Source of the DNA: an uncultured Candidatus Saccharibacteria bacterium
Lineage (GTDB): Bacteria; Patescibacteriota; Minisyncoccia; Phycocordibacterales; UBA2100
Direction of reading: 5' to 3'
Length of the DNA: 64,000 nucleotides
Assembly: GCA_964623775.1 (NCBI GenBank)
Contig: CAZUVH010000002.1
Span: forward strand, 110,454-174,453
Positions 53,968-63,443 of this stretch are shown here, one piece after another. The notes under the pieces were generated by a model. That model searched no databases, was not told the DNA's origin, and saw only the letters and a list, made by a program, of their open reading frames with translations. The position numbers and the translations under genes were made by a program. The first letter of the stretch is position 1. Each line of letters starts with the position of its first letter.

Positions 53968-54339
53968 TCATTCAAGCGCGTGGTGATACCAGTGGCCCTC
54001 CCAACCTTTCACTGCCTCCTTCAGGAGTGGCGGGTTCGAATTGAGGGAAAGCTTGTACGTGTCGTCTCCACTCTTAAACGTAATTTCACTGTAACGCAAA
54101 TCGATATAGGTGACGTAGTCGAGTCCCAGATAGACTGCCCGATCCTTACCCACATCCTTGAAAGGGATGCTCAGACCGCGTGCGTTCGCATGAATATTGA
54201 GCTTGAGCTTGGCTGCAATATGGGTAAGAAGCGCAAAATCCAAACCATATTCATTCGGCTTTCGCAGACCATGAATCGTCATCTCTATATCAGCGATGAT
54301 GCGCGCTGGGTAATCGGGCAAGGGGCAGAAAGGTGCCAC
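53968..54339 (-). CDS. hypothetical protein
   Basis: 123 aa, no recognisable domain. Confidence 0.4.
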   Translation of the reverse strand: MAPFCPLPDYPARIIADIEMTIHGLRKPNEYGLDFALLTHIAAKLKLNIHANARGLSIPFKDVGKDRAVYLGLDYVTYIDLRYSEITFKSGDDTYKLSLNSNPPLLKEAVKGWEGHWYHHALE

Positions 54340-54565
54340 AACCGTCTCGTCGAGAACATTTTCATCAACAAGACGACAACGATGCGCGCCACCACTCTAA
54401 TACACATAGTTGGGGCACTCACCGCACGAGCTCACACAATCGACTATCTTCCGCATTTTCAAACTCCCTTTGAATCGCTGCGGAGAAGTTAATCGACCCC
54501 GACGATTGTGTCAAATAAAAAGGGCGAGTCGTGAGACTCGCCCTCGTGCTAAGTACTAAGCTAAC

Positions 54566-55690
54566 TCAGCGTGTGTAGTAATCCTTGAACGCTGCGACGG
54601 CATTCGTCGCGGCGGTGAGGAGATTGTCCCGCAAGCACAGCTCATCGCAGAGCATGAAATTGCGATAGCCGATCTCATACAGCCATGCAAGCTGCTCGAA
54701 GTCGGCGTCGGAAGGAACTTCATTGATCCCGATCGAATACTTGATCACGCCGTCGACGATCGAAGGAACCTTGTTGACCACCGAGAGCATCATGCGCGAT
54801 CCTGCGATCGCGTATGGATCTTTCTCGATGATCAATTTCTGTGCCTTGAGGATCTCGTGCGGCATATCGAGTTCGACATAGAGATCACCTTTTGCTGCAC
54901 AGAGCCGAAGATTGTCGCGTTTTTTGAATTCGCGCGCGACGTACTCCATACCCTGTTTACTCTCGATCTTGAGGACTACCTCTTCGTGCTTGCCGACGAG
55001 GTCCAGGAACTCATCGACGTCGCGCTGACTCTGCACATACGAGAGGAACCAGCGCACGATTCCGTGCTTTTTTACTTTCTGGATCTTCTCGAGCTCGAGA
55101 TCGGTAAATTGATTGCCGCCGACTCTGAGCGAGGCGTCGCGGATGTGCAACGATTCGCCCACACGCACGTCGTTGTACGGGCGGCAGTTGCCGGGAAACG
55201 CGAGCTGGTGGAACCAGCCGTCACCCGGTAGTGGCGCTTCAGGCGACCCATACCACTGCTTCCCGTCGCCGAGATTCGTCAGGAATCCACTGTCGGCACC
55301 AGCCTTAAAGAGGACGGGCGTCGGTACATTGACCCTGATCGGATGGTTGAGTTCGAATGCGAGCGCATTCGGATCATCGATGACCTTCGTGACGCGAAGT
55401 TGCCGACCCTTAATGTCGAAGTAGAGCGGCACTTTCACTCCCTGCGGAATGAGCGCGAGCTGTTTGTCAAGATCGAAGGTCGTAAGCATCGCACTGTTGA
55501 GACGGATGCCGGCAAGCCGCGTATCATTGATGAATTTCCCAAAGTGAGAAAAGCTCGGTAGAAGCGTGACCATGATCTCGAGTTCTTTCGGGATCAGCGG
55601 CGACTTCGGCTTGATGAGTGTAGTACTCTTCGTTCGCGGCTCTTGTCCAAAGATTCGGTCATACATTTTACTGCTGAATAAATCTTTCAT
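54566..55690 (-). CDS. divergent pyruvate-kinase-like TIM-barrel protein (no C-terminal PK domain)
   Basis: Collinear by eye with pyruvate kinase barrel: LYFDIKGRQLR ~ LLDTKGPEIR, VLKIESKQGMEYV ~ ISKIENQEGL, AAKGDLYVEL ~ VARGDLGVEI, AQKLIIEKD ~ AQKMMIEKC; AGGAGG SD before MKDLF start. Confidence 0.45.
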   Translation of the reverse strand: MKDLFSSKMYDRIFGQEPRTKSTTLIKPKSPLIPKELEIMVTLLPSFSHFGKFINDTRLAGIRLNSAMLTTFDLDKQLALIPQGVKVPLYFDIKGRQLRVTKVIDDPNALAFELNHPIRVNVPTPVLFKAGADSGFLTNLGDGKQWYGSPEAPLPGDGWFHQLAFPGNCRPYNDVRVGESLHIRDASLRVGGNQFTDLELEKIQKVKKHGIVRWFLSYVQSQRDVDEFLDLVGKHEEVVLKIESKQGMEYVAREFKKRDNLRLCAAKGDLYVELDMPHEILKAQKLIIEKDPYAIAGSRMMLSVVNKVPSIVDGVIKYSIGINEVPSDADFEQLAWLYEIGYRNFMLCDELCLRDNLLTAATNAVAAFKDYYTR

Positions 55691-55751
55691 GATGTCCTCC
55701 TGAATGAATTTGGGGAGGGCAACTTTGCCCTCCCCTTGTTGGTTTTCAATT

Positions 55752-56747
55752 TCACCATTCGTCGGTGGGCTTGCCGGCGCCAAGACCCTTGGTCGCCGAA
55801 TTTCCCGAACGCTTTTTGGTGCCCGATACTGTATCGGGCTTCGCAAGTGCATGAACTGTCTTCAAAGACCGATACACAGTGGCGACCTGTGTTGCATTCT
55901 GCCGCCCTTCGATCTCCTTGCGGAAATAGCCGACCTTGCCGACTTCCTGCGCGAGAAGTCCGAATATGACGTCGACAGCTCGATTTGCATCGGAGAGGAG
56001 TGCGATGCGTTCCGCGCCGACAAGAGTCTTCCAGCGGTCGTAGACTTGCTGCGTGACCGCCGGCAATGTATCGCCGGAGATCCGCTCGGAGCCATATGGC
56101 TTCAGAATAATGTATAGCGAATATTTCTCCATCGTCTGTTCGACGATCTCCTCGATCGTATGAGTCTTTTCGATGACGACCCTTGCATGCTTCTTTGCAT
56201 CCACTACCGTGATGCGTGCGCACGGCATTTCATCCGTGATGATGATGTACACCGGCTTGTTTTTCGCCTTTGGCATATGCGTATTGTGGATACGGTAGAG
56301 CATCGCGAGGCCATGAGCCTCGTGATACAGTGCCGACCCGCCTCCGCCGCCGACGTGCTGAATCTTGTCGAGTTCTTTCAGCATCTCCGGCCCATCCGCA
56401 AAGGGACGCATCTGAACAGGGTAGTCGTCCTCGAGATCGCAGAAGCCACCGAAACTGATCTTTGCGTCCTCGCCGAGATATTCTTTCTTCACCTCGTGCT
56501 CGAAGTACGGAGCCTTGACGAAGAACTGCTTGTCCCAGCCATCCATAGATCCGCTACCGTCCGAATCGATGCAGCACTGGCTGTCGCTGTCGGTCGAAAT
56601 GGAATCAGGTAGGAGCTTGGAAGCCGGTCCCGCTAATTGCGCTTTTGCGTAGCCTCGGCCGGCGTTTACGTCGTAATTTTGTCGTGCCTGATCGAAGTTG
56701 TGACCTTTCCAGTGCGTTGCCGGTGTGTAGTCGCCGTCTTCTGACAT
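55752..56747 (-). CDS. von Willebrand factor A (vWA) domain protein, TerY-like
   Basis: MIDAS-like IDSDGSGSM motif and Rossmann-like alternating pattern. Confidence 0.6.
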   Translation of the reverse strand: MSEDGDYTPATHWKGHNFDQARQNYDVNAGRGYAKAQLAGPASKLLPDSISTDSDSQCCIDSDGSGSMDGWDKQFFVKAPYFEHEVKKEYLGEDAKISFGGFCDLEDDYPVQMRPFADGPEMLKELDKIQHVGGGGGSALYHEAHGLAMLYRIHNTHMPKAKNKPVYIIITDEMPCARITVVDAKKHARVVIEKTHTIEEIVEQTMEKYSLYIILKPYGSERISGDTLPAVTQQVYDRWKTLVGAERIALLSDANRAVDVIFGLLAQEVGKVGYFRKEIEGRQNATQVATVYRSLKTVHALAKPDTVSGTKKRSGNSATKGLGAGKPTDEW

Positions 56748-56785: not shown

Positions 56786-57814
56786 TCAGGATAACCAATC
56801 TTTCCAGTTCGAGCGCGCTCTGCCGAAACTTTTCTCGCGAACCTTGTCGAATTTGGCGGAAAGTTCCGCCGCATCCCTCGGCCGGTTGAGGACGTTGTAT
56901 ACGACGAGTGATTTGATGAATTCACACATCGCGTCCGGCACATTGCTCGGCACTTGCTTCAGCCGTACCGCATCAATCTTTCCCGTCAGCGCATAGATCA
57001 TACACATACCGAGACTGTAGAGATCGGATTCGGGTACGAGCGTCTTACCCTCGATCTGTTCCGGTGGCGAGAAGATCTCCGTATAACCCTTGCTGCCGGT
57101 ATCGGCCGTCGGCTTTACCGACGAGAGTCCGAAATCGACGAGTTGTGCAATATGTTTCTCCGGCTGGAGAATGATGTTTTGCGGCTTCAAGTCCCCGTGC
57201 AAGATACCGTGACGATGGAGCCAGCCGAGTGTGTTGAGAACTCGATCAGCTATGGATGCCACGATCTCGGGGTCCCGCTTACCGTGTTTTTCGACGGCCT
57301 GTTCGAGTGTTGGGCCTTCCACCCAACTCATCACGAGCGCGAGTGCGCCATTGTCGAGCTCAATCACATCTCTCATGATTGGCAGCCCGTAGTGGCTGAG
57401 ATTCCAGATGGATTTCGCCTCTTGCTTGAGGATCTCTTCCGCAACGGGAGAGATCTCAGAACAGATCTTGACGCATGAAAGCTCGTCCAGCAGCTGATGC
57501 TGGGCTTTGTACGTCACTCCGAATCCTCCTTGCGCCACTTTGGCGATCTTGCGATAGGGACCGATCATGCCGCTTGAGTTCGACTTCGTTTTCCGATATT
57601 CATCGTATTCGCGACGCGACTTTGGATTGGCGATGATCTCATACGCTTCTGCTATCCGCTTCACATTCGATTCGGTCGCACCCGCGATGCGTGGGGCGTG
57701 AATTTTCAGAAGCGCCTTGTGAGCCACCTCAATGATCTCAATCTGGGACCTTGGATGCACCTGGAGCACCTTATAGAGATCCATATCGTACGCTGACGGA
57801 AAGGCATGGGACAT
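56786..57814 (-). CDS. Hanks-type Ser/Thr protein kinase with N-terminal degenerate J-domain
   Basis: N-terminus DLYKVLQV...KIHAPRIAG...YEIIANPKSRREYDEY matches J-domain helices with HPD replaced by HAPR; kinase motifs GGFGVTYKA, VKI, HGDLKPQNIIL, DFGLS, SPPE. Confidence 0.85.
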   Translation of the reverse strand: MSHAFPSAYDMDLYKVLQVHPRSQIEIIEVAHKALLKIHAPRIAGATESNVKRIAEAYEIIANPKSRREYDEYRKTKSNSSGMIGPYRKIAKVAQGGFGVTYKAQHQLLDELSCVKICSEISPVAEEILKQEAKSIWNLSHYGLPIMRDVIELDNGALALVMSWVEGPTLEQAVEKHGKRDPEIVASIADRVLNTLGWLHRHGILHGDLKPQNIILQPEKHIAQLVDFGLSSVKPTADTGSKGYTEIFSPPEQIEGKTLVPESDLYSLGMCMIYALTGKIDAVRLKQVPSNVPDAMCEFIKSLVVYNVLNRPRDAAELSAKFDKVREKSFGRARSNWKDWLS

Positions 57815-57948
57815 GAGTATCTTTCCTTATGTAGGAATCAAAGTACCTGCGGCGATACTACATCAAGAAAATGGCTTTAGTCAACGGTATAATTTGACTT
57901 TTTGGACAGTTCGTGTTTGATGCGCGCAGATCAAAAAGGGAGACCGCC

Positions 57949-58764
57949 ATGCCTTTGCGAGGTATCGTGAAAAAGGCGCAGGATCAGGGGCCGCGCAGCT
58001 ATCAGGAGGATTTCATCGTTCACATTCCATTCGATCTCCCCCATGAACGGGGACACCTTATTGGCGTGTTCGATGGTCATGGCGGCGTAGATGCCGCCAA
58101 AGTGTGCGCAGCAGCGACGCCAAAATTCTTTTCTCCAAATGGCAATGACGACGCGGGAGAACTGCTGCGTCATCTTGTTGGTGAACTGAATGTGCTCACG
58201 TGCGAAATGCAATGCGGGACGACGGTGTCGCTCGCGTGCATCCTCGAAACGAGCCGTACGGTGGTAACTGCGACACTTGGCGACTCACCGATCGTCGTTC
58301 GTGATGTGAATGGATTGATCCGGACGAACAATCCGCACAATGTACGGTCGAATGAATCAGAGCGTCGAACGGCAATTTTGCGGGGTGGTTGGTACAACGA
58401 CGAGGATGGCTACCTCGTCGACGCCAATGACCGCGACGGTCCCGGTCTTCAAACGACGCGCGGTCTTGGGGACCGTTGGCTTGGTAAAGTACTCAGCCGT
58501 GAACCGGAGATCGAAACGTACGGCATTGGGGACACAAGCGCGATCATCGTCGGCTCGGATGGCTTAATGGAACCGGAACGTCTTAATCGCTACGTGCGAC
58601 GCAAAGGCACAACTGATGCGAAACTATTCCTTGAGATGACGAACGCTGCTACGCAGGTCTCGAGCGCACGCGGACTAATCGATTGGAGAAAATCTCAGGA
58701 TGAGCTTGACGACAACACCTCCGCGATCGTCTGGCGTCCACGCCGTTGGTGGGAATTGTTCTGA
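57949..58764 (+). CDS. PP2C family Ser/Thr protein phosphatase
   Basis: GVFDGHGG, LGDS, RGLGD, VGSDGL metal-binding motifs; GGGAG SD before MPLRGI. Confidence 0.85.
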   Translation: MPLRGIVKKAQDQGPRSYQEDFIVHIPFDLPHERGHLIGVFDGHGGVDAAKVCAAATPKFFSPNGNDDAGELLRHLVGELNVLTCEMQCGTTVSLACILETSRTVVTATLGDSPIVVRDVNGLIRTNNPHNVRSNESERRTAILRGGWYNDEDGYLVDANDRDGPGLQTTRGLGDRWLGKVLSREPEIETYGIGDTSAIIVGSDGLMEPERLNRYVRRKGTTDAKLFLEMTNAATQVSSARGLIDWRKSQDELDDNTSAIVWRPRRWWELF

Positions 58765-58857: not shown

Positions 58858-60594
58858 TTACCTCATCCGCAAGCTCCACACGGCACCGTTGTGGATGTAC
58901 ATGACTTTGTCATCCCAATTGGCGAGTGCCATGTCGGTTGCAACCTGCTTATCCTTGATCTTGTTCACCGTACCGCTTCGCGGCACGAAGATCACAAGCT
59001 CGCCGTCTTCGACGATGGTAGCGCACACACCTTTTGGCAGTATCGCGATGTTCAGATCGGCATTGTCCGTGCCTCCCTGCCACAGCGTATAACTGCTGTA
59101 ATCAGCGCTGAAGCTGAGCTCGAATTTCCGGAATGCACCGGTTTTGTCGATTCCTGCGAGTGAGACGAAGCGGTTGCCCGCTTTGCCCGCAAGCAGCTTT
59201 ATGCCATCGAGCTCTCGCACACGCACCGAGATACAGGCACTTTCGCCAAATGGCAGCACGAGGAACTGTGCGCCGAGCGCATCCTGAACTCCGACGCCGT
59301 CGTACCATTTTGTGGACTGCGGCGAGAGAATCTGAGTGCGCCGTCCGATCGAAAGGAGCGGGCGACCCACCTGCAGAAGCTGCAACTCCATCAATTCGCT
59401 TTCGGCGACAAGGAACAGACGGTTTTCAAAACGCACCGTCTTGTAACCGTTTTGCGCGAGCGGAAGCGATTGCTGCACACGCGTGCGATCGTCGATGAAT
59501 GAGTATGCCGGTTTCCCGAGGACCCAGTCAGCGAGCAGCCATCCATTTTCGACTTTGACGACTTCGCCGTTGCCCGAGCTCATGCGTCCGATATCACGCT
59601 TGGTGGTGAGATCGACCACGATACCCGAGGCAAGAAGCACCGCACCGCACGGATAGATCCGTACGACAGCATCGCCTGCTTTTTCGAATATCTTTTCGAA
59701 CACGAGCGCTCCTGTAGCCGTCGTCGTGACCCTGAGAGTTCGGGCTGCCGCAGGAATTGCTGCGACGCCCTTATCGTAGGGTGATGGCGGCACTGTGCGC
59801 ACGCCTTTTTCAAATGTCGCTTCGTACCAACCGAGGAGGGCATTCGGAACGCATTTGAAATCGCGTACTGCCGCGTTGAGCCCTACACCATTGTGGAAGA
59901 CTGAGGCGTTCGCTTTCATTCGCGCTTCCATATCGCCCGGCTTAAATCCGCTGAGTGATCCCCGGTACGGATGGATGCCCGTGAATATCTGGAAGGTCAC
60001 GATTCCCCATGAGAACCAGTCAGAGAGTTTCGTGTATCCATTTGTATGCCAATCTTTGATGGACGGCATGATTGCTTTCGGACCAAATCGGCCGACAGCC
60101 CATGAATCCACATCAATGGCACGCGGCTCCGGGCCGTTTTTGCCTGCGAGGAACGCAATCCAGTTGAGCTCATTGGCATCGACCATGACCGCATTTCGAT
60201 CATGCGCGAAGACAGTCGTCTCGTGCATACGAGCGACAAGTGTATGTGCTTCACCATCACCAAACTTTTCGCGATTGCGAAACGCGTTGGTGAAGATGCG
60301 AGGCAGTGCCTCACCTTCCGCCCACGGCATGTAGATGCCGATCGGCTTACCCTTACCATCAGTCACGACGCCTTCCGGTGCCATGATGTACTGATGCTTG
60401 AGAGGCTTCAGCAGCTGGATCTTCTCCGCAATGCCGTCGCGTCGCATCTTGTCGGGATCAGTGTAGAGCTTAATGCTCGTACCCAAAGAGCGGTAGACCG
60501 ATGCTTCTCCGCCGCTCGCGACATAGTCGCTCGGGCGAAGTGTCAACGGTCCACGACCTTCGAGTTCTACTTTCAGGTTTCCACTTGGAGCCAT
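58858..60594 (-). CDS. atypical protein-kinase-like protein with about 330-aa C-terminal domain
   Basis: Gly loop ASGGEASVY, Lys in SIKLY, DANELN catalytic-loop-like, IDVDSW (DFG position), DWFSWGIVTFQIFTGIHPY (subdomain IX-like); C-terminal region of unknown fold. Confidence 0.55.
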   Translation of the reverse strand: MAPSGNLKVELEGRGPLTLRPSDYVASGGEASVYRSLGTSIKLYTDPDKMRRDGIAEKIQLLKPLKHQYIMAPEGVVTDGKGKPIGIYMPWAEGEALPRIFTNAFRNREKFGDGEAHTLVARMHETTVFAHDRNAVMVDANELNWIAFLAGKNGPEPRAIDVDSWAVGRFGPKAIMPSIKDWHTNGYTKLSDWFSWGIVTFQIFTGIHPYRGSLSGFKPGDMEARMKANASVFHNGVGLNAAVRDFKCVPNALLGWYEATFEKGVRTVPPSPYDKGVAAIPAAARTLRVTTTATGALVFEKIFEKAGDAVVRIYPCGAVLLASGIVVDLTTKRDIGRMSSGNGEVVKVENGWLLADWVLGKPAYSFIDDRTRVQQSLPLAQNGYKTVRFENRLFLVAESELMELQLLQVGRPLLSIGRRTQILSPQSTKWYDGVGVQDALGAQFLVLPFGESACISVRVRELDGIKLLAGKAGNRFVSLAGIDKTGAFRKFELSFSADYSSYTLWQGGTDNADLNIAILPKGVCATIVEDGELVIFVPRSGTVNKIKDKQVATDMALANWDDKVMYIHNGAVWSLRMR

Positions 60595-61442
60595 CAGACG
60601 TCTCCTTCTTGGTGTTCGACGCGCACCATCGCATAGGCGATGTCGTCGAGCGGCCCTTTGCCTACCTTGCGCGCGTCTTTAACAAACGCATTCAGGCGTC
60701 GTTTAACGAAGACGCCTTCGACACCTTTGAACGCGAGCAGTTGCAGCACTACGTCTTTCCAATCCACTCCCTCGACCTGCGTGACGCCGTCGCTGAATAC
60801 AGCGACAAATGAGACTTGTTCCGGTGACAGATTCAAGGTAACACCCTGAATTCCCGCCGCGACCGTCAATTCACTTGCGAATGACTCTCCGGTCGATTTA
60901 TTCCACGTTTCCCATCTGAGCGCCTGCTTATATGCACCACCGTGAGTCTTTATGAATGACTCGTATCCGTCGGTACTGTAGGCAGGATAGAGAGGAGTAT
61001 TGTTGGTCCAATCGAAACGATGGAGAAACATCTCCCCATTCCTAAAAATGACCGCAACGACACCGTCGCCGCGAACATTTACAACGCATGTCTCTTGTGA
61101 CATGGCCACATACGAACACGTGGCAAGCATGTCACTCGTCTCAAGCTGAAGCTTGTTTTTCACAGCGTTCATAGTGCTCTGCTGATGGTCATTGATGAAC
61201 CCTGCCGCATCAAGAGAGAGTAAAAACGATTGCCAATTCTTACGAATCGCCGTTGCCGTCGTATGGGTCACTATTCGCGCACCCACATCGGTGTGTCCAC
61301 CACTTGAGCACCCGTCGGAGACGATCGCGTATGCGACGCCATCGTGAATTCCTGAGAGCGAGTGATCCTGACATGGTTTGCCGGAGATCACGTGATGGTG
61401 ACCGATCAGGAAGTGATCATCCGTATGGAATTTCAACTTCAT
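60594..61442 (-). CDS. PP2C-like phosphatase
   Basis: CQD..., VSDGCSSGGHTD (DGxGG-like), VRGDGVV, VFSDGV motifs in PPM order. Confidence 0.55.
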   Translation of the reverse strand: MKLKFHTDDHFLIGHHHVISGKPCQDHSLSGIHDGVAYAIVSDGCSSGGHTDVGARIVTHTTATAIRKNWQSFLLSLDAAGFINDHQQSTMNAVKNKLQLETSDMLATCSYVAMSQETCVVNVRGDGVVAVIFRNGEMFLHRFDWTNNTPLYPAYSTDGYESFIKTHGGAYKQALRWETWNKSTGESFASELTVAAGIQGVTLNLSPEQVSFVAVFSDGVTQVEGVDWKDVVLQLLAFKGVEGVFVKRRLNAFVKDARKVGKGPLDDIAYAMVRVEHQEGDV

Positions 61443-61513
61443 TGCATTTCCCCTTCTTCAGAAAAGAATAAGGGAGGGAGCTGTGCCCCCTCCCCGTGGT
61501 TGCCGGCCATCGA

Positions 61514-62269
61514 TCAGATGGCGGCGGCGATAGCTTGACTTGGTCCGCCCGTGCCCTGCGCGAGCGCCTGGCTCGAGACAGACTGCGAGACGAACGCGGC
61601 GAGCTTCGCGAGATTGCGCTCGGTCGCGTCGCCGGCCTTCCGATAGTGCGTCATGCCGGTCTTCTGCTGGAACGCCTGCAACGTCGCATCGTACTGGTCG
61701 GTATTGATGCCGACGAGAATCGAGATCAGGGATTCGAGCTTCTCGCTCGTGACCGCCTGCTCGAGCGCCTTCTTCAGTGCCGCTTCCGTCATCGTGGAAT
61801 CGAGCTCTGCACCATCAGAGAAGGTGAAGAGGATTCCATTCGCTCCGTAGTCGTTCTTCGCAAGCTCCTCGGCGTAGGTCAGTGTCGCTCCGACGCCTGA
61901 ATAACAGCCGTCGATAAGCGGAGTGCCACCGCCGATCTTGATGGAATCGTAGACAGTTTCGTCGATGTCCGCGAGTGGCTTGAAGCCATGGATCTCGATG
62001 ACACCCTTGTCGGCTCGCGTGGTAAACACGATTGCACGCACCATGATGTTGTCGGACATCGGATTCTTGCGACAGGCACCGACGGCCATCTTGACCATCT
62101 TGATGATTTCACCCCGGTACGGGATGACCGAGCTGCTGCCGTCGATCGCGAAGGTGACGAGCGTGTAGGTGCTCGCGCCGAGCCTGTCGAAGCGAGCGCC
62201 GGTAAATGCGAATCCGCCTTTGCCCGCGATGTTGAATTCCTGCATATCGTCTTGGTCGAGACGAGGCAT
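61514..62269 (-). CDS. vWA domain protein, TerY-like
   Basis: Start at MPRLDQDD with AAGGAGAT SD; MIDAS VTFAIDGSSSV; vWA-like alternating pattern. Confidence 0.6.
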   Translation of the reverse strand: MPRLDQDDMQEFNIAGKGGFAFTGARFDRLGASTYTLVTFAIDGSSSVIPYRGEIIKMVKMAVGACRKNPMSDNIMVRAIVFTTRADKGVIEIHGFKPLADIDETVYDSIKIGGGTPLIDGCYSGVGATLTYAEELAKNDYGANGILFTFSDGAELDSTMTEAALKKALEQAVTSEKLESLISILVGINTDQYDATLQAFQQKTGMTHYRKAGDATERNLAKLAAFVSQSVSSQALAQGTGGPSQAIAAAI

Positions 62270-62352
62270 AGTGGTATCTCCTTGCTGTTGCTGGTAGGTA
62301 GTTCTGCTGCGGGCGGAATTGCCCGCAGCCGTTGTTGCGATTGTGATTCCGA

Positions 62353-63270
62353 TTACGCGAGGAAGTCGGTCGACTTCATCAGCGTCATGCCGCGCGCTTC
62401 CATGTCTTTCAGGAATTGCGCTGCGATGGCGGGGAAGTCGACGACATTCGGGATCGCCGGTACGGGCGACATACAGTCGGTGAGAAGAATCATCTTCTTC
62501 ACGTGCTCGTCGCCGATGTTGTCGGCGATCTGCTCGACGGTACGCTTCACACAATGACTCGATGCCCAGCCCGCGACGCCGATCATATCGGCCTTCTGGA
62601 GCGTAGTAACGAGTCCCCCGTTCAGCTGCGTCGAAGGATCGTCCGGATCGACGACTTCCGCCATGAGGCCGCCGAAGTGCTCGCGCCACACGTTGGAACC
62701 CTTGGTGACCTTATTGGCAACACCCATGTACTTGCGTTCCCAACGCGTAACGGCGGCTTCGACATCGGACTGGACTCCGTGGCCCCACGTGCCGATACGG
62801 CAGTGCGGCGGCCAGATCGTGTGCTTGAAGGGACTTGTTGCTTCGAGCGCGACAAGATATTCCTGCTGGCGTTTTTGGTAAGCCGGATTGCGAGCGCGCC
62901 ACATGCCGGCCTTCATGTTGTCGGCCGTGATCATGGTGAACGGCCCCGGCGGTCTGCCGTTGTCGTCGCGCCACATATCAGGATGTCCGATATGCATCAC
63001 ATGATGCGAGTCGAGCGTTTCGTGGATGTCGTTCAGTTTGTGACCGACGCGATCGATAAGCGCCGCGAGGCGCTTGGCATCGGAAACAGCGCCCTTGACG
63101 GGGAGTGCCGCGACGTTCAGGGTCGAAGGAAGATCCTTGACCTTCATGTCGGACGAACGGATGTCACCACTGAGAATCGTCTCGGTGAGCGGACTGCCGT
63201 CGTCGTTGCCCATGAAGTCGTTCTGCGGGTCGACGATGAAAAGGTCGACCTTGAGAGTGCCTCTCGACAT
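62353..63270 (-). CDS. isochorismatase-family cysteine hydrolase (nicotinamidase-like)
   Basis: DLFIVDPQNDFMG N-terminal motif and catalytic-Cys region GWASSHCVKRTV. Confidence 0.55.
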   Translation of the reverse strand: MSRGTLKVDLFIVDPQNDFMGNDDGSPLTETILSGDIRSSDMKVKDLPSTLNVAALPVKGAVSDAKRLAALIDRVGHKLNDIHETLDSHHVMHIGHPDMWRDDNGRPPGPFTMITADNMKAGMWRARNPAYQKRQQEYLVALEATSPFKHTIWPPHCRIGTWGHGVQSDVEAAVTRWERKYMGVANKVTKGSNVWREHFGGLMAEVVDPDDPSTQLNGGLVTTLQKADMIGVAGWASSHCVKRTVEQIADNIGDEHVKKMILLTDCMSPVPAIPNVVDFPAIAAQFLKDMEARGMTLMKSTDFLA

Positions 63271-63443
63271 AGTGCTTCTCCAAGCTTGCAAGACCCGTTC
63301 AACTTCGGTGGGTCTTATAACCGTTTGTATTTCAAAGAACCTTGGTCCATGCCATATGCACTGACCTAGTGTATAAAATACACTAAGTAAAATACATTGC
63401 AAGGAGCTGCAGAAATCTACAATATTCGTCTAAAATGTCAACC

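Follow-up and report, generated by a model that had tools for sequence, protein, structure and literature searches.

A J-like domain without its HPD motif on a Hanks-type kinase, in a gene cassette of CPR bacteria, DPANN archaea and huge phages

What does a J-domain do for a protein kinase once it has lost the residues through which J-domains engage Hsp70? The question is raised by a 64,000-nucleotide stretch of an uncultured Candidatus Saccharibacteria bacterium (contig CAZUVH010000002.1, positions 110,454 to 174,453; hereafter, the window). In it, an open reading frame (ORF) on the minus strand (56786..57814, stop included) encodes, from an ATG start, a 342-aa protein in which a J-like domain lacking the His-Pro-Asp (HPD) motif is fused to a Hanks-type Ser/Thr kinase. 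J-domains act universally as adaptors that assign Hsp70 its tasks, and His33 and Asp35, as numbered in Escherichia coli DnaJ, are both needed for the engagement of Hsp70 and the stimulation of its ATPase. To our knowledge, natural fusions of a J-domain with a protein kinase are almost unknown beyond GAK and the cancer chimera DNAJB1-PKAc. The plus-strand frame of the same interval contains stops throughout and was rejected. The identical protein (P0001) is encoded in a 235-kb NCBI contig and in an independent Logan assembly and is, therefore, neither a sequencing error nor an assembly artefact; its nearest genome-derived orthologue, from a Patescibacteria metagenome-assembled genome (MAG), is 57% identical. 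A first-pass annotation, made from the letters of the window without database searches, had given exact coordinates for this ORF, but it missed the minus strand, the partner genes described below (von Willebrand factor A (vWA)-fold, pyruvate kinase (PK)-like and PP2C phosphatase) and the fixation of the motif change across a whole clade.

The N-terminal domain is a true J-domain homologue. The Pfam DnaJ profile (PF00226) aligns over its full length (positions 1-63 of 63) with residues 12-71, which cover helices I-IV (57602..57781, minus strand), with a score of 33.4 bits (E=4.8e-8; gathering cutoff 27.8), and the N-terminus searched alone reaches 36.5 bits (E=5.3e-9). A phmmer search of PDB sequences retrieved J-domains almost exclusively, with Sis1 as the best match (E=1.7e-7), followed by DnaJ, CbpA and the DNAJB family. 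An AlphaFold2 (AF2) model of residues 1-88, computed from a 60-sequence alignment, has a mean predicted local distance difference test (pLDDT) score of 84.2 and places helices at residues 13-17, 25-38, 48-62 and 64-80. This is the four-helix J fold with its helix II/III hairpin, and all 50 top matches listed by Foldseek against the PDB are J-domains or chains containing one. Among them are the CbpA J-domain (3ucs_C, root-mean-square deviation (rmsd) 1.4 Å, template modelling (TM) score 0.81), dnj-12 (TM 0.89) and 5nro_B, the DnaJ J-domain of the DnaK complex. The first-pass annotation had proposed a J-domain-like N-terminus at residues of about 10-75, and the checks suggested with it, namely a PF00226 search, an alignment to canonical J-domains and a structure model, all returned significant matches.

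The HPD motif, in contrast, is gone. In a gapless alignment with about 120 orthologues, most of which read HHPD or YHPD, H39 of the query falls on Y32 of E. coli DnaJ, A40 on H33, P41 on P34 and R42 on D35; further anchors of the register are I28 (I21 in E. coli DnaJ), A31 (A24), H32 (Y25), K33 (K26) and L35 (L28). By this family alignment, the tripeptide at the HPD position, in the loop between helices II and III, is A40-P41-R42 (57689..57697, minus strand). The query does contain the string KIHAPRIAG (HAPR codons at 57689-57700), and a pairwise phmmer alignment with Sis1 sets H39 on the His of HPD. Within the clade of the query, position 39 is occupied by H (11 sequences), C (9) or Y (8), and the position preceding HPD in HPD-bearing members by H (47) or Y (29). 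Position 39 therefore varies like the residue before the motif in HPD relatives, which indicates that HPD became APR and argues against an insertion yielding H-(A)-P-R. The earlier reading of HAPR in place of HPD was right about the loss, whereas its His belongs to the position before the motif. Both essential side chains, equivalent to H33 and D35, are lost, and the substitution of Arg for D35 is a charge reversal. With APR at residues 40-42 in place of the invariant tripeptide, the protein is to be classed as a J-like, HPD-less derivative and not as a member of the functional class of J-proteins. In the canonical DnaK-DnaJ complex (PDB 5NRO), the residue at the D35 position would face R167 of DnaK. 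The HPD loop has been described as ‘critical for stimulation’ of Hsp70 (PMC3237618), and H33Q alone abolishes Hsp70 binding and recruitment by the J-kinase fusion DNAJB1-PKAc (PMC6533061).

The kinase domain retains its catalytic apparatus. Its core spans residues 87-280 (56975..57556, minus strand; Pfam Pkinase E=7.2e-30), and the sequence shows a GGFG loop, K116, E132, HGD206-208, DFG227-229 and PPE250-252. G96/G99, K116, E132, H206-G207-D208, K210, N213, D227-F-G229 and P250-P-E252 are invariant in a 40-sequence alignment of the family (A1), as are D264 and R311. Both the profile match and the full set of catalytic residues of a Hanks-type Ser/Thr kinase are thus present and, since the Arg of HRD is replaced by Gly, the enzyme is a non-RD kinase. 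The annotated architecture, a Hanks kinase with an N-terminal J-like fusion, was confirmed by the Pkinase and DnaJ matches with all catalytic motifs intact. Outside the core, the protein ends in a 23-residue tail without a Cys cluster (56789..56857, minus strand), in which the family consensus VRxKSFGRxRSGMKP appears as SFGRARSNWKD in the query. R326, F330, G331, R332, S335, M337 and K338 of the tail are invariant or nearly so in alignment A1, and it could serve as a docking or pseudo-substrate peptide. PADLOC matched the kinase core with generic kinase models alone (PD-T4-6, mad6 and MkoA), so no known defence system was assigned; the matches in NCBIfam and PADLOC (PD-T4-6, mad6, PknB and others) are of this generic kind and lie well under the family cutoffs. 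Membership in MADS6 (NCBIfam NF047741) was likewise rejected, at 94 bits against a cutoff of 460. The NF047741 alignment is oddly placed, with query residues 13-200 (the J-like domain and the kinase N-lobe) on profile positions 435-608 of 612, and MAD6 proteins might, from this placement, have a C-terminal J-like or second kinase-like region.

How widespread is this fusion, and what accompanies it? A search over 5.8 billion proteins gave 781 matches, and the best 120 of them, which were inspected, are all 327-349 aa long and carry DnaJ and Pkinase annotation nearly throughout. J-kinases of about 335 aa thus form at least 120 clusters at 90% identity, distributed across bacteria of the Candidate Phyla Radiation (CPR), DPANN archaea and huge phages, most of which keep HPD; the architecture is not as uncommon as the annotation had supposed. 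On contigs taken from one genome per species, the hosts are Patescibacteria, Parcubacteria, Saccharibacteria, Peribacteria and Uhrbacteria MAGs. Orthologues also occur in DPANN archaea, among them Archaeon GW2011_AR15, whose genome is closed, and a few were found in MAGs of Spirochaetales, Omnitrophota and Obscuribacterales. At every informative locus, the J-kinase gene has downstream of it, on the same strand, homologues of the two genes that come next in the window, which encode a vWA-fold protein and a PK-like protein. When flanking ORFs were clustered over 44 loci, the kinase was present in 44, the vWA gene in 43 and the PK-like gene in 37, the shortfalls falling mostly at contig ends, and no other neighbour was consistently conserved. 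The next commonest neighbour is a gene of the ADP-ribosylglycohydrolase family (phrog_6572, E=9e-50), found in 9 of the 44 loci (for example, L007 3211-4266 and L085 207-1196). No description of a prokaryotic J-domain/Hanks-kinase family or of a J-kinase/vWA/PK-like cassette was found in the literature, our coverage of which was incomplete. The cassette is, apparently, widespread and undescribed.

The second cassette gene (55752..56747, minus strand) encodes a 331-aa protein with a DxTGS MIDAS-like motif, in which D63 and S67 are invariant and G66 nearly so. It was recognized by fold: its AF2 model (pLDDT 80.8) matches integrin beta-I (vWA) domains in a fold search at E~1e-6 and probability 1.0. 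Pfam, NCBIfam and PADLOC gave no match at thresholds of E≤0.01 to 1, and the family profile retrieved nothing from PDB sequences. The family comprises 261 clusters at 50% identity with E≤1e-30, and 973 with E≤1e-10. Some of its distant relatives, P0299 (385 aa), P0290 (432 aa) and P0292, have a C-terminal U-box (E3-ligase) domain (E=2.8e-18 in P0299), and P0292 is faintly similar to DUF444/YeaH (E=4.3e-5, below cutoff), the vWA partner of the PrkA/YeaG kinase. The vWA gene occurs as a tandem duplicate between the kinase and PK-like genes at two loci (L020 8405-10288 and L023 8839-10744), and at a third, L015, its ORF extends into a K/T/S-rich low-complexity tail of about 230 aa.

The third gene (54566..55690, minus strand) encodes 374 aa from an internal ATG and has the A-domain barrel of pyruvate kinase with its catalytic motifs, without the C-terminal domain. 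It matches the Pfam PK barrel at E=2e-7, and its family profile matches PDB pyruvate kinases at E=4.7e-11 (1a3w). The motifs RLN, DxKGxxxR, KIEN and A(R/K)GDL are invariant, with residues R63, N65, D92, K94, R99, K241, E243 and D269. Full PK architecture is lacking, NCBIfam scores of about 25 bits lie far from the curated cutoffs of 306-642, and the best-matching stretches of full-length pyruvate kinases span barrel residues of about 150-380. On its sequence, we regard the product as a putative PK-like enzyme and not as a standard pyruvate kinase.

A further set of kinases, of 255-265 aa and 37-47% identical in the kinase core, has no J-domain (L022-L025, L027, L028 and L030-L032), and several of their loci carry divergent vWA-like and PK-like genes downstream, forming a sister cassette. 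The core module therefore works without a J-domain, which points to the J-domain as an N-terminal accretion onto a kinase/vWA/PK-like core.

We then asked whether the loss of HPD is peculiar to the query. Among 149 aligned sequences, the motif is HPD in 94, APR in 24, GPR in 3, MPR in 1 and GAR in 1, and 11 have no J-domain; the rest are scattered HPD losses (PPG/PPT, RGP, HTD, DAD, NLD, SKD, GVR, HHD, HPG and RPD). HPD is, thus, canonical in 94 of the 138 J-bearing sequences. In a neighbour-joining tree of the kinase domain alone, rooted on the J-less kinases, the sequences with a PR-type motif (P0001-P0027 and L002) fall into a single clade that branches from among the HPD members, supported in 37 out of 40 bootstraps. 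This clade, hereafter the APR clade, has at least 28 clusters and reads [A/G/M]PR, with GAR in P0026: R42 is conserved in 28 of 28, P41 in 27 and A40 in 23. Its topology points to a single origin of the replacement in the clade of the query, followed by fixation. A separate lineage, composed of P0059 (APR) and L013 (GVR), grouped with the APR clade in none of the 40 bootstraps, and the APR motif thus appears to have evolved twice independently. The P0059 lineage shares with the APR clade an Asp at position 46. Since the change from HPD to APR takes several nucleotide changes and yet has arisen repeatedly, it is better seen as a selected alternative state than as drift.

The domain itself appears to be as constrained in the APR clade as in its HPD relatives, and not decaying. 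In the APR clade, the J-like domains share a mean pairwise identity of 0.566 and the kinase domains one of 0.679 (ratio 0.83), against 0.483 and 0.604 in the HPD members (ratio 0.80), and the domain is untruncated in all clade members. Charge switches characterize its surface (K to D at position 29, G to D at 46, K to E at 66 and R/K to D/E at 72), and, in helix II, the positions corresponding to Y25 and K26 of DnaJ are conserved.

The APR clade also has a distinctive neighbour. Divergent from the query kinase, on the plus strand, lies a PP2C phosphatase gene (57913..58764; Pfam PP2C E=1.3e-13) with DGHGG and GSDG motifs; since the gene is called as 271 aa in L001, translation may in fact begin at the Met located 12 codons downstream. 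A divergent PP2C gene stands directly upstream of the kinase in 7 of 8 APR-clade loci (the window and six on long contigs), L002 being the locus without it. A hidden Markov model built from the clade copies was positive at 3 of 52 other cassette loci, all HPD-type (L005, L007 and L029). PP2C is missing from the independent APR lineage P0059 and from the HPD-less loci L012, L013, L017 and L020. A general tie between HPD loss and PP2C gain is ruled out by these PP2C-less cases and by the three HPD loci with PP2C.

The cassette is common to ultra-small cells and huge phages. Full-length J-kinase orthologues were found on 23 IMG/VR contigs (L082-L104) of 45-485 kb, with the vWA and PK-like genes downstream in nearly all, flanked by dense same-strand arrays of short ORFs. 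Matches in these flanks to jumbo-phage PHROGs include tRNA nucleotidyltransferase, a Thg1-like tRNA-His guanylyltransferase, NinI-like phosphatase, ADP-ribosylglycohydrolase and phrog_7313. One of the contigs corresponds to the deposited 485-kb ‘uncultured phage’ LR745208, with its J-kinase at LR745208.1 132758-133705. HPD is present in 20 of the 22 phage copies whose N-terminus was read, and APR in none. Some of the MAG contigs bearing orthologues may be mis-binned phage; the window, GW2011_AR15 and the long-contig loci of the APR clade and P0059 are clearly cellular. For the window, a mis-binned phage is ruled out by UvrA, UvrB and UvrC, two aminoacyl-tRNA synthetases, glutamate dehydrogenase and Obg; it also encodes an M29 aminopeptidase, a GuaC/IMPDH-type enzyme, alanine dehydrogenase and a PAS histidine kinase. 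APR-clade loci generally lie in housekeeping surroundings (UvrA/C, Ddl, homoserine dehydrogenase, acetate kinase and NAD-salvage genes), with L116, which has an SNF2/methylase nearby, as a partial exception.

Taken together, these results lead us to favour, as the probable explanation, that the query carries an Hsp70-uncoupled J-like module, which has been kept to regulate or dock the kinase of a kinase/PP2C/vWA switch. The domain descends from a bona fide HPD-bearing J-domain and stands on an active-looking, non-RD Hanks kinase; in the HPD-type relatives, it probably recruits DnaK, either to the kinase itself or to the vWA and PK-like proteins. HPD changed to [A/G/M]-P-R and became fixed in the clade of the query. 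DnaK coupling would thereby have been lost, while the J fold would have been retained under selection, its surface remodelled and more acidic and its Arg invariant, to serve in docking or autoregulation. The outcome would be a four-gene phospho-switch, made of the divergent PP2C and a co-transcribed J-like kinase, MIDAS-bearing vWA protein and PK-like enzyme, in which kinase and phosphatase reversibly phosphorylate the vWA and/or PK-like proteins, their presumed substrates. The first-pass annotation had offered two roles for the domain, a tether to a chaperone and a helical docking module. The former is plausible in the HPD-type relatives but, with the H33 and D35 equivalents replaced and D35 turned into an invariant Arg, less likely in the query, for which docking seems the better suggestion.

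Several points weigh against this explanation. The probable loss of Hsp70 coupling in the query is judged by analogy with what is known of other J-domains. The conserved Y25 and K26 equivalents leave room for residual or non-canonical binding to DnaK. Besides the J-kinases themselves, no DnaK, GrpE or other J-protein gene was found in the window and 80 loci, so that the cognate DnaK is not among the genes surveyed. The trees were built by neighbour joining only. Finally, the association with PP2C represents a single phylogenetic event and is lacking in L002 and P0059, which speaks against the phosphatase having causally replaced an Hsp70 input.

Among the alternatives, it is possible, if unlikely, that the APR domain has kept some unconventional form of cooperation with Hsp70, either binding DnaK without stimulating its ATPase, as a holder or inhibitor, or pairing with a co-evolved DnaK. 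The kinase would then remain tethered to a chaperone, as the first-pass annotation had proposed. Its strong conservation together with the retained helix II residues, the HPD motif of its ancestors and most relatives, which are presumably DnaK users, and a motif that arose twice and could mark a specific new interface are all compatible with such a role. Set against them are the replacement of both H33 and D35 equivalents, with an Arg that would face R167 of DnaK, and the lack of an Hsp70 gene linked to any of about 100 cassette loci. Moreover, H33Q by itself ends Hsp70 binding in a J-kinase fusion (PMC6533061). Loss of HPD by drift would instead make the domain a decaying relic, a neutral N-terminal extension, which we hold to be very unlikely. 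HPD has indeed been lost many times in the family, in the scattered states listed above, and J-less kinases run sister cassettes, so the domain is dispensable for the core module; but the J-to-kinase identity ratio is no lower in the APR clade than in HPD members, R42 is invariant over 28 clusters whose J-like domains share only about 57% identity, the fold is confidently predicted and the domain is never truncated. As for a chance helical resemblance to J-domains, nothing but the missing HPD speaks for it, and it is refuted by the full-profile Pfam match, dozens of PDB J-domain matches, the fold at 1.4 Å rmsd and the continuity with HPD orthologues; we give it practically no weight.

Two further explanations concern the cassette as a whole. 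It might be a mobile conflict module, in anti-phage defence or phage counter-defence, in which the J-like domain would act as a decoy for J-proteins of phage or host, or would sense them. The copies on huge-phage contigs, including the curated 485-kb LR745208, the many unrelated chromosomal contexts and the presence of a second vWA-like/PP2C/kinase-like group next to the cassette in the window would fit this idea, as would a composition resembling the TerY-P triad, which has relatives with defence functions (PMC10542128). We nevertheless consider it doubtful, as PADLOC offers generic kinase models alone and does not match the vWA, PP2C or PK-like proteins, there is no nuclease or other obvious effector, APR-clade loci lie among housekeeping genes and not in defence islands (L116 again excepted in part), and a PK-like third gene suggests metabolism. 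A more far-reaching proposal, which we regard as rather unlikely, sees in the cassette a regulatory machine, so far undescribed, that operates in the ultra-small cells of CPR and DPANN and in their huge phages. In it, the ancestral J-domain would recruit host Hsp70 as an ATP-driven remodeller, in the manner of the MoxR AAA+ partners of other vWA proteins, the MIDAS-bearing vWA protein would be an adaptor, and the minimal PK-like enzyme, and hence the supply of phosphoenolpyruvate/ATP, would be switched on or off; in the APR clade, a new interface at the APR loop, together with PP2C, would have replaced the chaperone input. If this were true, the APR motif, having evolved twice, would mark out a novel binding mode in which the J fold engages something other than Hsp70.

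Returning to the Hsp70-uncoupled regulatory module, comparison with known systems presents it as a variant of J-like domains, J-kinase fusions and vWA/kinase/phosphatase switches already described, with a mechanism that we infer. Its closest relatives are the HPD orthologues, such as those of Parcubacteria Gr01-1014_20 (P0040), Archaeon GW2011_AR15 (L010) and phage LR745208, which are 40-52% identical to the query and share its length, domain order, kinase motifs and downstream vWA and PK-like genes. They differ in having the canonical HPD, in mostly lacking an adjacent PP2C and in being phage-borne in some cases, whereas the clade of the query combines APR, a divergent PP2C and a chromosomal location. 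GAK/auxilin-2, likewise a natural protein with a Ser/Thr kinase and a J-domain, is eukaryotic, has the kinase at the N-terminus and the J-domain, with intact HPD, at the C-terminus, and acts in clathrin uncoating with Hsc70; the query reverses this order and lacks HPD. The PK-like protein shares with pyruvate kinase a homologous A-domain barrel and catalytic motifs but, at about 310-370 aa, has no C-terminal regulatory domain, and its gene is always linked to the kinase and vWA genes. The oncogenic fusion DNAJB1-PKAc of fibrolamellar carcinoma (PDB 4wb7 and 8fe5) resembles the query in placing a J-domain N-terminal to a kinase core, and the J model of the query superposes on it; yet that fusion is a somatic accident with an intact HPD and recruits Hsp70 (PMC6533061), whereas the query belongs to an evolved family and lacks H33 and D35. 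Mitochondrial Pam16/Tim16 offers another likeness, since it has a J fold without HPD that serves as an interaction and regulatory module instead of an activator of the Hsp70 ATPase (PMC3237618). Pam16, however, heterodimerizes with the true J-protein Pam18 at the import motor, while the query is fused to a kinase and has no partner J-protein gene linked to it.

The TerY-P triad, as described in PMC10542128, combines a TerY-like vWA protein, a PP2C and a Ser/Thr kinase in a predicted metal- and phosphorylation-dependent switch. The clade of the query resembles it in encoding vWA, kinase and PP2C side by side (55752-56747, 56786-57814 and 57913-58764 in the window), an adjacency repeated in 7 of 8 clade loci. 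The TerY-P kinase of PMC10542128, however, bears a C-terminal zinc ribbon (an OB fold in the defence variant), in place of which the query has an N-terminal J-like domain; most cassettes have no PP2C, and the third member that they constantly contain is a PK-like enzyme. As no model recognizes the vWA protein, identified by fold alone, as TerY-like, and as the kinase lacks a zinc ribbon or OB fold, the locus is TerY-P-like in composition but not a member of that system.

The interest of the family lies in its being an evolved J-kinase fusion set in a conserved three-gene cassette of CPR bacteria, DPANN archaea and huge phages. It amounts to a natural experiment, with an HPD-bearing majority, two APR lineages in which the fold appears to be under selection, and J-less sister cassettes. 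A comparison of the HPD, APR and J-less forms would put two questions within reach of direct tests: the contribution of a J-domain to a kinase switch, and the use to which a J fold is put when cut off from Hsp70. Such comparisons could also reveal how a PK-like enzyme is controlled in organisms with minimal genomes and in the phages that carry the cassette.

Signals around the cassette are consistent with a single transcript of the query kinase, vWA and PK-like genes, whose spacers measure 38 and 61 nt and contain GGAG-type Shine-Dalgarno motifs. A sigma-70-like promoter match (57855..57884, minus strand; TTGACT-18-TAGTAT, 9 of 12 positions) lies in the 98-bp divergent spacer upstream of the kinase; it is a consensus match alone, with one found against 2.6 expected by chance. 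Just past the PK-like stop, a terminator-like hairpin with an 11-bp stem and a T-tract (tail TTTATTT) occupies 54520..54545 on the minus strand. The vWA/PK-like spacer holds a perfect 10-bp GC-rich hairpin (55712..55735, minus strand; RNA fold -22.9 kcal/mol, z=-3.3). Lacking a T-tract on the sense strand, this hairpin does not qualify as an intrinsic terminator; on the opposite strand, it scores as terminator-like.

Beside the cassette, a second group of genes (58858-62270, minus strand) is arranged in the classic TerY-P gene order; it is not a conserved neighbour of the cassette at the other loci. Its first protein, of about 250 aa, has a DGSSS MIDAS-type motif and probably starts at MPRLDQDD within the ORF 61514-62689; Pfam and PDB sequence and profile searches gave no confirmation of it as a vWA protein. 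The second is a PP2C_2 protein (60594-61442, E=1.2e-17), and the third, of 578 aa, combines a weak match to a kinase C-lobe with a long C-terminal domain. Upstream of this triad, a family-less ORF (62353-63402, minus strand) encodes a protein of about 305 aa from MSRGTLKV. A second family-less ORF (53968-54339, minus strand; 123 aa) lies between the PK-like gene and obg, and is called as a gene in L001 too.

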